Shown here: positions 48,150 through 51,907 of the stretch, in pieces | Position numbering within the stretch: position 1 is the stretch's first letter | How the letters are laid out: every line of letters begins with the position of its first letter | Translations under genes and position numbers: made by a program | Notes under the pieces: generated by a model | The model's database searches: none | What the model saw: the letters and a program-made list of their open reading frames with translations, nothing else | Told to the model about the DNA's origin: nothing | From: Eledone cirrhosa | Taxonomy: Eukaryota | Direction: 5' to 3' | NCBI GenBank assembly: GCA_964016885.1 | Contig: OZ024741.1 | Location: 280,488,001 to 280,552,000, forward strand | Length of the DNA stretch: 64,000 nucleotides

Positions 48150-48430
48150 TATATATAAGGGTTAAAATACTGGAGCGTGTTGGAGTTAAACACCCTCTTC
48201 GTATTATAGAAATGACAGTAAAAGGTATAGCTCAATGTAGTTAAACAGAGCCCTAAATCTTGCAATACTTTAGTGTATGTACACTCCATATTCTTCGGAG
48301 TTTCCGGCTTGTATTGGCCGATAATACTTCTTGTTGTTTTAATTGCCCTGATGAGTCCTTAATAGGACGAAACATTGTCGGCTAATAAAGACTTTTGATG
48401 TATTGAAGGCTTCTTTGTTTTACTTTCTTT
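48150..48430 (+). mobile_element. Probable Penelope-like element 3' remnant (pLTR) carrying a hammerhead, bounded by (TA)n
   Basis: Degenerate frame VKILERV...LRIIE...LN resembles a GIY-YIG C-terminus (weak). It is followed by a minimal type I hammerhead and AATAAA. Confidence 0.55.
48337..48390 (+). ncRNA. Minimal type I hammerhead ribozyme (family A), predicted cleavage after C48379
   Basis: GCC-CUGAUGA-GUCCU(UAAU)AGGAC-GAAAC-AUU-GUC/GGC. All core nucleotides present; stems I and II pair. Confidence 0.85.
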
Positions 48431-48686
48431 ATATATATATATATATTTATATATATATATTTATATATATATATATATATATATATATACAATTAAGTTA
48501 AAGTGTACATCTACATATGTATACGGAAGTATTAGTATGCATATAAATACACACATGTATACATATGTACATGTACTGAGTTTTTCACTAGACACTTTAC
48601 AGTGAGTGTCAGCTAGTCTGTACGTAACCACACAGACGGACCGGGTTTTAGAGTCATACGAGTTTTCAAGGAAACACATTTCCTCT

Positions 48687-48781
48687 ATTCTCCAGAGGGC
48701 CAGACAGGAATATTGGACTAGTTTCGATGTTGTTACATCTCATCAGCAATATTTACCCATCTTCCGGCTTCTCTGGAGAAT
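48687..48781 (-). ncRNA. Type I hammerhead ribozyme (family B, inverted copy, intact core), predicted cleavage between 48716 and 48715
   Basis: Reverse complement of 49408-49502. Confidence 0.88.
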
Positions 48782-49407
48782 TGTAAAAGCACATATCGTT
48801 ATATGCTTTTTCTATGAAAATTAGTAGTGGGTAGACTAATCTGCATAGAACGTGAGTCATTGTACGCACCGGTTCAACGGAAACGATAAAAACAAATAAC
48901 GAAACGAAATTAAATTTCGTTTCGCTTCTAACTCACTTTTGTATGACTGACGCTTAAACAATTAAGTTAAAGTGTACATCTACATATGTATACGGAAGTA
49001 TTAGTATGCATATAAATACACACATATATACATATGTACATGTACTGAGTTTTTCACTAGACACTTTACAGTGAGTGTCAGCTAGTCTGTGGTTACGTAC
49101 AGACTAGCTGACACTCACTGTAAAGTGTCTAGTGAAAAACTCAGTACATGTACATATGTATACATGTGTGTATTTATATGCATACTAATACTTCCGTATA
49201 CATATGTAGATGTACACTTTAACTTAATTGTTTAAGCGTCAGTCATACAAAAGTGAGTTAGAAGCGAAACGAAATTTAATTTCGTTTCGTTATTTGTTTT
49301 TATTGTTTCCGCTGAACCGGTGCGTACAATGACTCACGTTCTATGCAGATTAGTCTACCCACTACTAATTTTCATAGAAAAAGCATATAACGATATGTGC
49401 TTTTACA

Positions 49408-49502
49408 ATTCTCCAGAGAAGCCGGAAGATGGGTAAATATTGCTGATGAGATGTAACAACATCGAAACTAGTCCAATATTCCTGTCTGGCCCTCTGGAGA
49501 AT
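49408..49502 (+). ncRNA. Type I hammerhead ribozyme (family B, copy 1), predicted cleavage after C49473
   Basis: AAUAUUG-CUGAUGA-GAUGU(AACA)ACAUC-GAAAC-UA-GUC/CAAUAUU. Stem I extends through internal loops to AUUCUCCAGAG/CUCUGGAGAAU. Stem III is the palindrome ACUAGU. Confidence 0.92.
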
Positions 49503-49876
49503 AGAGGAAATGTGTTTCCTTGAAAACTCGTATGACTCTAAAACCCGGTCCGTCTGTGTGGTTACGTACAGACTAGCTGACACTCACTGTAAAGTGTCTA
49601 GTGAAAAACTCAGTACATGTACATATGTATACATGTGTGTATTTATATGCATACTAATACTTCCGTATACATATGTAGATGTACACTTTAACTTAATTGT
49701 TTAAGCGTCAGTCATACAAAAGTGAGTTAGAAGCGAAACGAAATTTAATTTCGTTTCGTTATTTGTTTTTATTGTTTCCGCTGAACCGGTGCGTACAATG
49801 ACTCACGTTCTATGCAGATTAGTCTACCCACTACTAATTTTCATAGAAAAAGCATATAACGATATGTGCTTTTACA

Positions 49877-49971
49877 ATTCTCCAGAGAAGCCGGAAGATG
49901 GGTAAATATTGCTGATGAGATGTAACAACATCGAAACTAGTCCAATATTCCTGTCTGGCCCTCTGGAGAAT
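49877..49971 (+). ncRNA. Type I hammerhead ribozyme (family B, copy 2), predicted cleavage after C49942
   Basis: Identical to copy 1, 469 bp downstream. Confidence 0.92.
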
Positions 49972-50345
49972 AGAGGAAATGTGTTTCCTTGAAAACTCGT
50001 ATGACTCTAAAACCCGGTCCGTCTGTGTGGTTACGTACAGACTAGCTGACACTCACTGTAAAGTGTCTAGTGAAAAACTCAGTACATGTACATATGTATA
50101 CATGTGTGTATTTATATGCATACTAATACTTCCGTATACATATGTAGATGTACACTTTAACTTAATTGTTTAAGCGTCAGTCATACAAAAGTGAGTTAGA
50201 AGCGAAACGAAATTTAATTTCGTTTCGTTATTTGTTTTTATTGTTTCCGCTGAACCGGTGCGTACAATGACTCACGTTCTATGCAGATTAGTCTACCCAC
50301 TACTAATTTTCATAGAAAAAGCATATAACGATATGTGCTTTTACA

Positions 50346-50440
50346 ATTCTCCAGAGAAGCCGGAAGATGGGTAAATATTGCTAATGAGATGTAACAACAT
50401 CGAAACTAGTCCAATATTCCTGTCTGGCCCTCTGGAGAAT
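50346..50440 (+). ncRNA. Type I hammerhead (family B, copy 3) with the core mutation G5A, probably inactive
   Basis: Core reads CUAAUGA at 50381-50387 instead of CUGAUGA. Confidence 0.8.
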
Positions 50441-50979
50441 AGAGGAAATGTGTTTCCTTGAAAACTCGTATGACTCTAAAACCCGGTCCGTCTGTGTGGT
50501 TACGTACATACTAGCTGACACTCACTGTAAAGTGTCTAGTGAAAAACTCAGTACATGTACATATGTATACATGTGTGTATTTATATGCATACTAATACTT
50601 CCGTATACATATGTAGATGTACACTTTAACTTAATTGTTTAAGCGTCAGTCATACAAAAGTGAGTTAGAAGCGAAACGAAATTTAATTTCGTTTCGTTAT
50701 TTGTTTTTATATATATATTTTTATATATATATATATATATATATATATATATATATATATATATATATATATATATATATATGTAGATAAATCTACCAAG
50801 AGTTTACGGTAGTGTCCAATCCGTATGAAGAACTCAATGTAATCCGGATATCATGGAAAGAAGAGATGCAATGAAAAATCACTTTCGGTGAAAGATAAAC
50901 GGAATACAGAGTCAAGATAAAATATTAAAAAAATAATGAATAAAACAATGAAACAGTTCCTTATATTAAACAAAAAAAG

Positions 50980-51143
50980 TTCATTATTTAACGATCGTTT
51001 CTAGGATATATATGTGTTAGAATTGGCATGCATATTCAACAGATCTATGTACAAAATTATACAAAATTATACAAAATTATACAAACTATCAAAATTAAAT
51101 ATACATACCAACACATATATATGCCGTCTTCAGAAATAATGAA
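50980..51143 (-). ncRNA. Type I hammerhead-like motif (family C, minus copy)
   Basis: Reverse complement of 51162-51315 with one extra 10-nt loop repeat. Confidence 0.6.
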
Positions 51144-51161
51144 ATATATTTATTGATATAT

Positions 51162-51315
51162 TTCATTATTTCTGAAGACGGCATATATATGTGTTGGTAT
51201 GTATATTTAATTTTGATAGTTTGTATAATTTTGTATAATTTTGTACATAGATCTGTTGAATATGCATGCCAATTCTAACACATATATATCCTAGAAACGA
51301 TCGTTAAATAATGAA
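51162..51315 (+). ncRNA. Type I hammerhead-like motif with a very long stem II (family C), predicted GUU site at 51303-51305
   Basis: UUCAUUAUUU-CUGAAGA-[long stem II]-GAAAC-GAUC-GUU/AAAUAAUGAA. Perfect 10-bp stem I and palindromic stem III AACGAUCGUU. The base of stem II is non-canonical (C...A). Confidence 0.65.
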
Positions 51316-51377
51316 CTTTTTTTGTTTAATATAAGGAACTGTTTCATTGTTTTATTCATTATTTTTTTAATATTTTA

Positions 51378-51636
51378 TATATATATATTTATATATATAT
51401 ATATATTTATATATATATATATATATATATATATATATATATATATATATATATATATATATATATATTTATATATATATATATATATATATATATTTAT
51501 ATATATATATATATATATATTTATATATATATATATATATATTTATATATATATATATATATATATATATATATATATATATATATATATATATATATAT
51601 ATTTATATATATATATATATATTTATATATATATAT
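51378..51636. repeat. (TA)n microsatellite
   Basis: Direct inspection. Confidence 0.95.
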
Positions 51637-51907
51637 GCGCGTGTGTGTAAACCAACGTTCAATTCAATAGAGACGTTGACCGCGAAACACAAACATTGTT
51701 GATAGAGAGAATCCTTTTTGGTTGTCTCACAACCTGCTAGAAATAGCAATCAGGTTGGTTAACATACCCGAGATGTTTTTCTTCATTGATTTTATAAAAT
51801 GAGTATCAATATTCCATTGGTGTACTTACTTTTCGATTGTCAGTTTCGTGTTTGTATGATGCGCGAAGATACCAACCAAACAACAAACATCTCTCTTTTA
51901 TATTATA

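Follow-up and report, generated by a model that had tools for sequence, protein, structure and literature searches.

Hammerhead-bearing insertions stacked in one TA-rich site of the Eledone cirrhosa genome pair a short with a long end

Penelope-like elements (PLEs) of the Hydra clade have been described by Craig et al. (2021, PMC8557442), whose supplement lists Hydra-1_Obim from Octopus bimaculoides, and Penelope-like families of an octopus have been reported in a paper whose accessible parts do not mention ribozymes (PMC13282606). Hammerheads are known from the pseudo-long terminal repeats (pLTRs) of PLEs, including pairs that lie on opposite strands at distances of 100-700 bp (PMC4209133), and the head-to-head layout of PLEs, with duplications of 8-10 bp, has been discussed together with a self-priming model (PMC3846280). 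The mechanism of PLE integration is still described as open (PMC8557442, PMC11167929). The purified Poseidon PLE of Anolis cuts and extends both strands, its reverse transcriptase (RT) starts at two adjacent internal sites, the protein is predicted to be a dimer and the hammerhead is dispensable for insertion (Frangieh et al. 2024, PMC11167929). Among retrozymes, 24 of 57 families have homology to PLE pLTRs, and one of nine tested elements cleaved (Li et al. 2026, 10.64898/2026.07.22.740005). Here, we analysed 64,000 nucleotides of the Eledone cirrhosa genome (assembly GCA_964016885.1, contig OZ024741.1, positions 280,488,001 to 280,552,000, forward strand; hereafter the window), in which hammerheads of three families, A, B and C, are chained through (TA)n tracts, and followed the families through further loci (numbered with the prefix L) of the 3.0-Gb genome.

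Each of the three families is present in the chain as two arms that are joined at their 5' ends, and both outer ends are 3' ends at (TA)n (Table 1). The elements had been thought, from the letters of the window alone, to begin and end in (TA)n; instead, they are arranged head to head with a 3' end on either side. A fourth element end, D, had been overlooked in that sequence-only reading. The chain very probably records four insertions (D, A, B and C) in one once-short TA-rich site, with A and C being truncated pLTRs of two different Hydra-type PLEs and B a non-coding tandem repeat that was likely mobilised in trans. Since all of them target (TA)n, a successive arrival of the four elements is likely.

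Every family has two fixed 3' ends, a short one (S) and a long one (L), which are spaced by 103 (A), 71 (B) and 136 nt (C). Of the 66 two-armed inserts in which both ends were resolved, 65 combine one S with one L end (21 of 21 in A, 27 of 28 in B and 17 of 17 in C; P = 9e-19 in a test against 50%), the sole exception being a B insert inside a larger fold-back. This near-absolute asymmetry of the ends suggests that both DNA strands prime, and that they do so asymmetrically, and it likely records the integration mode of PLEs. A statement of a strict S+L rule, or of a PLE footprint in retrozymes, was not found in the literature searched, a search that subscription papers and bioRxiv supplements lay outside. 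An inverted arm could also be produced by fold-back self-priming of one cDNA and endonucleolytic trimming at S, a model of the type put forward in PMC3846280. This would directly account for the S/L asymmetry, and it is favoured by the palindromic junctions, by the equal stop points of many C inserts (the arms stop within 30 nt of each other in 11 of 13 resolved) and by the private variants that both arms of single B inserts share and that indicate one donor. However, the two arms of the A insert in the window do not overlap at all, its long-end arm beginning 9 nt past the S site. Moreover, among the unbiased A inserts the junction was resolved in 10 and not in 3 others, and in 6 of the 10 the S arm extends beyond the L arm in the 5' direction and the tail is confined to the L arm; among the C inserts (13 resolved, 4 not), 2 had this arrangement. 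In such inserts, neither arm can have been copied from the other. Fold-back self-priming is excluded for these inserts, and we regard it as an unlikely explanation in general. Of 23 C arms that stop inside the reference, 14 did so within 5 nt, and 9 ended on the A of TCATT, an element 7 nt ahead of the core that may be an initiator.

The genome contains 2,309 exact copies of a 30-mer of family A and 6,716 of a 27-mer of family C, with none of the reversed control patterns in either case. Family A flanks an 891-aa open reading frame (ORF) in L064, and L061 has the order pLTR-ORF-pLTR with a frameshift in the frame; family C flanks 813-aa ORFs in L102 and L105. The proteins of A and C are 41.5% identical, and both carry RWR, DKT, YRDD, CxCx5C, GIY-YIG-like, CxxC and CxH motifs, of which RWR, the form of RW[K/R] in A and C, was also present in 27 of 80 aligned rows. 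A total of 118 homologues were found. An AlphaFold model of the C protein, based on an 80-row alignment, had a predicted local distance difference test (pLDDT) score of 85.6, and its best structural match was telomerase RT (E = 4e-9). Thus, one ORF combines a telomerase-like RT, judged by the fold of the C protein, with a GIY-YIG domain, recognised by motif only, as expected for PLEs with an endonuclease (EN+). The layout is also that of PLEs, with pLTRs flanking the ORF, an inverted 5' copy and a tail (L061, L064, L102, L105). As in Hydra PLEs (PMC8557442), A and C have a single RT ORF with a C-terminal GIY-YIG and the set RW[K/R], DKT, CxCx5C, CxxC and CxH, a hammerhead in the pLTR, an inverted 5'-truncated copy, a tail at one end and insertion into (TA)n, which abuts 65 of 70 A ends and 56 of 56 C ends. 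Unlike these elements, which are generally <3 kb (a tendency and not a defining rule) and have tails of 30-40 nt, A is ~4.7 kb and C ~7.1 kb long with long 3' untranslated regions (UTRs), tails of 103 and 136 nt, an Asn-rich insert and thousands of copies, and the C hammerhead has a stem II of >100 nt. The Asn-rich insert is unstructured, lies between the RT thumb and the linker (residues ~480-625 of the L064 ORF and 477-572 of the L105 ORF) and resembles those described for Adineta Penelopes. Similarity to the alignment in the supplement of PMC8557442 was judged by eye, and on this basis neither family is Hydra-1_Obim. By these features, A and C are the pLTRs of two different autonomous PLEs of the same clade with different proteins, and putative new Hydra-type families that are young (copies 95-100% identical, ORFs apparently intact).

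The sequence-only reading had taken the motifs as marks of PLEs and of a retrozyme-like repeat, which is supported, and had assumed one RT/GIY-YIG machinery for all of them, which is not: A and C each have an intact ORF of their own, and no single shared enzyme is needed. It is most improbable that one protein mobilises all three families or that the chain moved as a composite unit. Such a scheme could draw on the same target, the same S/L layout and the common clade of the A and C proteins, but the divergence of the two proteins, the different end sequences and the different tails of A, B and C speak against it, as do the separate S/L pair of each insert and the lack of a second composite among the fetched loci.

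When both strands of the window were scanned with a descriptor for type I hammerheads, six strict motifs and one core mutant were found, all of them within 48348-51305, and none in the rest of the 64 kb; the average over 100 block-wise dinucleotide shuffles was 0.13 motifs, with a maximum of 1. Seven motifs of three families, restricted to this part of the window, had indeed been noticed, although one B core is broken and C is non-canonical. Of the four B motifs assigned earlier to a 469-bp array, only three lie in the plus-strand array and the fourth in the inverted arm, and the (near-)palindromic stem III claimed for all is perfectly palindromic in B and C and not in A. The A motif and three B copies in the window have CUGANGA and GAAA cores, an NUH site and an open stem I, whereas the B copy at 50381 lacks an intact core because of an exchange of G5 for A, which we presume to be inactivating. 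Intact cores were found in 61 of 62 A motifs and 116 of 120 B motifs counted, and the cleavage triplet of the 62 A motifs was GUC in 28 and GUU in 34. In family C, both cores are present, as are a stem I of 10 bp, a palindromic stem III and a GUU site, but stem II, of 115/125 nt, opens on a C.A mismatch at 10.1-11.1. This mismatch is present in 33 of 33 intact C motifs, the long-stem-II form is unchanged in 33 of 34 motifs counted, and a divergent relative keeps the mismatch while the next pair varies between G.U, A-U and G-C. That C is a working hammerhead is a prediction that stands on the cores, the 10-bp stem I and this conservation. In 2 of 13 short C inserts an arm starts at most 2 nt from the predicted cut. 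Many matches to miRNA families of Rfam at the E-value level proved to be perfect fold-back junctions and were rejected.

Family B consists of a 469-nt non-coding tandem unit with 1,725 exact 29-mer copies in the genome (reversed control, 0). Two or more consecutive units contain a type I hammerhead, as required of a retrozyme, and the monomer from cut to cut folds with z = -10.1. Like animal non-LTR retrozymes (Cervera and de la Pena 2020, PMC7229834; 10.64898/2026.07.22.740005), it has non-coding tandem units with one type I hammerhead each, a small palindromic stem III, low GC, a highly self-paired monomer and dispersed arrays; unlike them, as far as described there, it shows the full PLE footprint of head-to-head arms, S/L ends and TA target, and it has no homology to the pLTRs examined. 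The S+L rule, which B has in common with the PLE families, ties B to the PLE machinery, and B is likely mobilised in trans by a PLE. Its variant patterns fit circular and long multimeric templates alike. An autonomous PLE beside the hammerheads, as had been anticipated, was found for A and C and for none of the inspected B copies (~50 of several hundred B sites), which also have no ORF of their own. B might still be the pLTR of a further autonomous PLE or a satellite spread by DNA recombination, and this is given some room by the number of B sites inspected, by the DNA searches, which score the top 40 candidates only, and by variant patterns in long arrays that suggest some local duplication. 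We nevertheless consider it improbable, since none of the inspected copies is followed by its own ORF or 3' UTR, and the fixed S/L ends in TA on many contigs, together with a clean insertion into the 3' UTR of another PLE (L062), do not fit a satellite. In L019 and L062 a Hydra-type ORF adjoins B; B as the pLTR of this ORF was rejected, because other copies of the element lack B there, and in L062 B is a secondary insertion within the 3' UTR of an element from a third Hydra-type family. A relaxed BLAST search for a helper of B yielded only B-like tandem relatives of 58-65% similarity. These tandem or fold-back repeats, similar over 250-500 nt, lie in L245, L067, L186, L156, L120, L048, L162, L088, L254 and L183 and indicate a wider B-like superfamily; L067 also has a hammerhead array with a spacing of 310 nt. 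B offers a direct way of asking whether retrozymes use PLE proteins in trans, and if it is inserted by the same reaction, its S/L sites would be a mechanistic fingerprint of retrozymes parasitising PLEs.

In L1 twin priming, both target strands prime cDNA, which gives an inverted 5' part; in the inserts described here, by contrast, both priming positions are fixed and the sequences of the two arms usually overlap. We propose that a dimeric RT/GIY-YIG protein would nick both strands of (TA)n. One 3'-OH would then prime cDNA at L, the RNA site further downstream, and its counterpart would do so at S, 71-136 nt upstream; both cDNAs would run towards the 5' end of the RNA and stop or break, and microhomology repair would join them head to head. 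The junctions of the arms are short overlaps or slipped duplications. Overlapping arms would need two RNAs or strand displacement. With TA left on both sides, the insert would still be a target. Multimeric transcripts are likely cut by the hammerheads, in the case of B to 469-nt monomers or circles, a predicted cleavage that need not be required for insertion. On balance, we lean slightly towards the joint view that PLEs use an obligatorily asymmetric twin priming in which the halves of a dimer start at two fixed RNA sites, one per cut strand, that B uses its own pair of sites in the same reaction, and that the hammerhead of C is an active variant whose stem II, of >100 nt, has a C.A pair at its base. 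Priming from both strands fits the data obtained with Poseidon in vitro (PMC11167929), where two adjacent RT starts define the tail, both strands are extended and the target is AT-rich; Poseidon belongs to another clade and has a shorter tail, and in contrast to it each insert described here uses one site of each kind. Young (TA)n-targeting families with apparently intact ORFs make the prediction a sharp one: each insert should have one S and one L end.

Several points weigh against these interpretations. In the Poseidon assay, there was no difference between the strands in the start site (PMC11167929). The 66 inserts counted for the S+L rule are those left of 72 paired inserts after 6 with an unresolved end had been excluded, and single-armed inserts (such as D and L062) are uncounted; furthermore, seven A loci and the A insert of the window came from a query that was already S+L-shaped, but 55 of 56 inserts were S+L after the removal of these and of the B and C inserts of the window. 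Rfam gave no match of any kind at gathering thresholds. At the E-value level, A reached 31.7 bits on RF00163 (gathering threshold, 34); on RF02275 (gathering threshold, 52), the B copies with an intact core scored 31.4 bits and the core mutant 28.5 bits; and C had no Rfam hammerhead match even at that level. Family C thus lacks both the paired 10.1-11.1 base of stem II and a match to a family model. Pfam gave no family for the three ORFs searched, and the putative Hydra membership of A and C rests on motifs and not on an RT tree. No fetched B copy was a pLTR beside an ORF, and the helper of B was not found; B has no similarity to the pLTRs of A or C, and no PLE pLTR homologous to B was present among the fetched loci, in a genome that holds many more PLE families.

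Resolved 3' ends were searched in 126 merged stretches (622 kb), and (TA)n was scored if at least three TA units lay within 8 nt. Together with 73 of 79 B ends, the A and C ends given above amount to 194 of 205 resolved 3' ends that are abutted by (TA)n, and the (TA)n flanks reported earlier are therefore a property of all three families. The chain interrupts an older dispersed host repeat, whose left part has 1,461 first-look candidates in the genome. Of 11 paralogues of this site, 7 have both halves of the repeat and 4 lack the right half. Four of the 7 have a TA-rich gap of 29-39 nt, two have a gap of ~108 nt (one with a GT expansion, one with a late-starting match) and one has a different insertion at the identical spot. 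Thus, the 3.57-kb chain replaced a short TA-rich spot, and these empty sites, which are paralogous and not orthologous, confirm the TA microsatellite as a repeated landing pad. Target-site duplications of ~7-13 nt were suggested, by eye, at 2 non-TA sites among 13 viewed; none was present at the single-armed L062, and inside (TA)n they are not measurable. Two-armed B inserts at non-TA sites are located at L257 2928-3758 and L251 3023-3404, with apparent duplications of ~7-13 nt.

The clustering had been regarded as a special hotspot. In a control of forty 10-kb stretches at round coordinates (L171-L210, 400 kb; one overlaps L105 by chance and was retained), there were 15 type I motifs in 14 insertions and at least 10 sequence families, or ~1 motif per 27 kb, as well as 297 TA tracts of at least 20 nt; 9 of the 40 stretches also contained Hydra-like coding pieces. 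At this density, three insertions in 64 kb are of the expected order. Extrapolation from the control stretches gives about 110,000 type I motifs in the genome (63,000-185,000), a total that includes long-stem forms missed by Rfam, and under independent occupancy ~450 three-element chains would be expected genome-wide, as a rough estimate. Each insertion might make the next one more probable by duplicating and lengthening its TA target, and such a self-reinforcing hotspot was examined with 106 element ends from position-ordered sets, the window being excluded. Within 300 bp beyond these ends, 7 other hammerheads were found against 1.19 expected from the genome mean (5.9-fold, P = 2.4e-4; one of the 7 is a direct nesting rather than a TA link), with no enrichment further out, and the tracts of the window measure 15-264 nt compared with the 29-39-nt spot of the empty paralogues. 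On the other hand, a hammerhead within 1 kb was present at 9 of 106 element ends and at 27 of 420 control TA-tract sides (Fisher P = 0.52), although the control figure is raised by TA tracts lying beside an element of their own, which leaves room for a modest feedback, and the 1.8-kb degenerate TA array at 58579-60366 of the window holds no hammerhead. Self-reinforcement is therefore a doubtful, if conceivable, contribution. With no excess over ordinary TA tracts, the hotspot is not a special one: the landing pad is real but common, and the pile-up is ordinary for this genome. The features are real, of known kinds and stacked at an ordinary shared target; the asymmetry of the ends is the part worth following.

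Table 1. Features of the chain in window coordinates, with the hammerheads of each family
Feature	Position	Strand	Remark
Older dispersed host repeat, left part	47560..48066 (start approximate)	+	~85% identical copies elsewhere; contiguous with right flank in paralogues
TA tract 1	48065..48080
Family D, solo 3' end of ~626-nt tandem non-coding element	48079..48146	-
TA tract 2	48143..48157
Family A long-end (tail) arm, to L site	48158..48252	-	100% identical to tail of full-length element
Family A short-end arm, pLTR piece of putative Hydra-type PLE A	48256..48432	+	carries the A hammerhead
Family A hammerhead core	48348-48379	+	GUC site; descriptor scan
TA tract 3	48428..48489
Family B short-end arm, 1.3 units	48490..49090	-	carries one hammerhead
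Family B hammerhead in inverted arm	48746-48716	-	descriptor scan
Family B long-end arm, 3.5 x 469-nt units	49088..50708	+	three hammerheads, one G5A
Family B hammerhead	49443-49473	+	descriptor scan
Family B hammerhead	49912-49942	+	descriptor scan
Family B hammerhead, core mutant	50381-50411	+	A for G at core position 5
TA tract 4	50704..50781
Family C long-end arm, pLTR and 136-nt tail of putative Hydra-type PLE C	50783..51158	-	carries one hammerhead
Family C hammerhead, non-canonical	51133-50990	-	descriptor scan
Family C short-end arm	51156..51378	+	carries one hammerhead
Family C hammerhead, non-canonical	51172-51305	+	descriptor scan
TA tract 5	51372..51635
Host repeat, right part	51637..51910 (end approximate)	+	66-88% identical continuation in 7/11 paralogues

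The element behind end D is a TA-targeted tandem of ~626 nt with 1,276 first-look candidates, also present at L262 1501-2195. In the 15 loci viewed, most copies had a single arm; no hammerhead was recognised in the D unit, and an Rfam search with one unit gave no match. The third young Hydra-type family, E (L062 1193-2484, minus strand, and L111-L140), has copies of ~100% identity and 1,841 candidates. In L111, a B arm lies downstream of the 3' UTR of E in the same orientation, possibly by nested insertion or a template switch. Elsewhere in the window, a decayed piece of a Hydra-type endonuclease (matching the C protein with E = 1e-6) is present at 37274-37537 on the minus strand, and a 28-bp satellite of 112 copies at 27483-30462.

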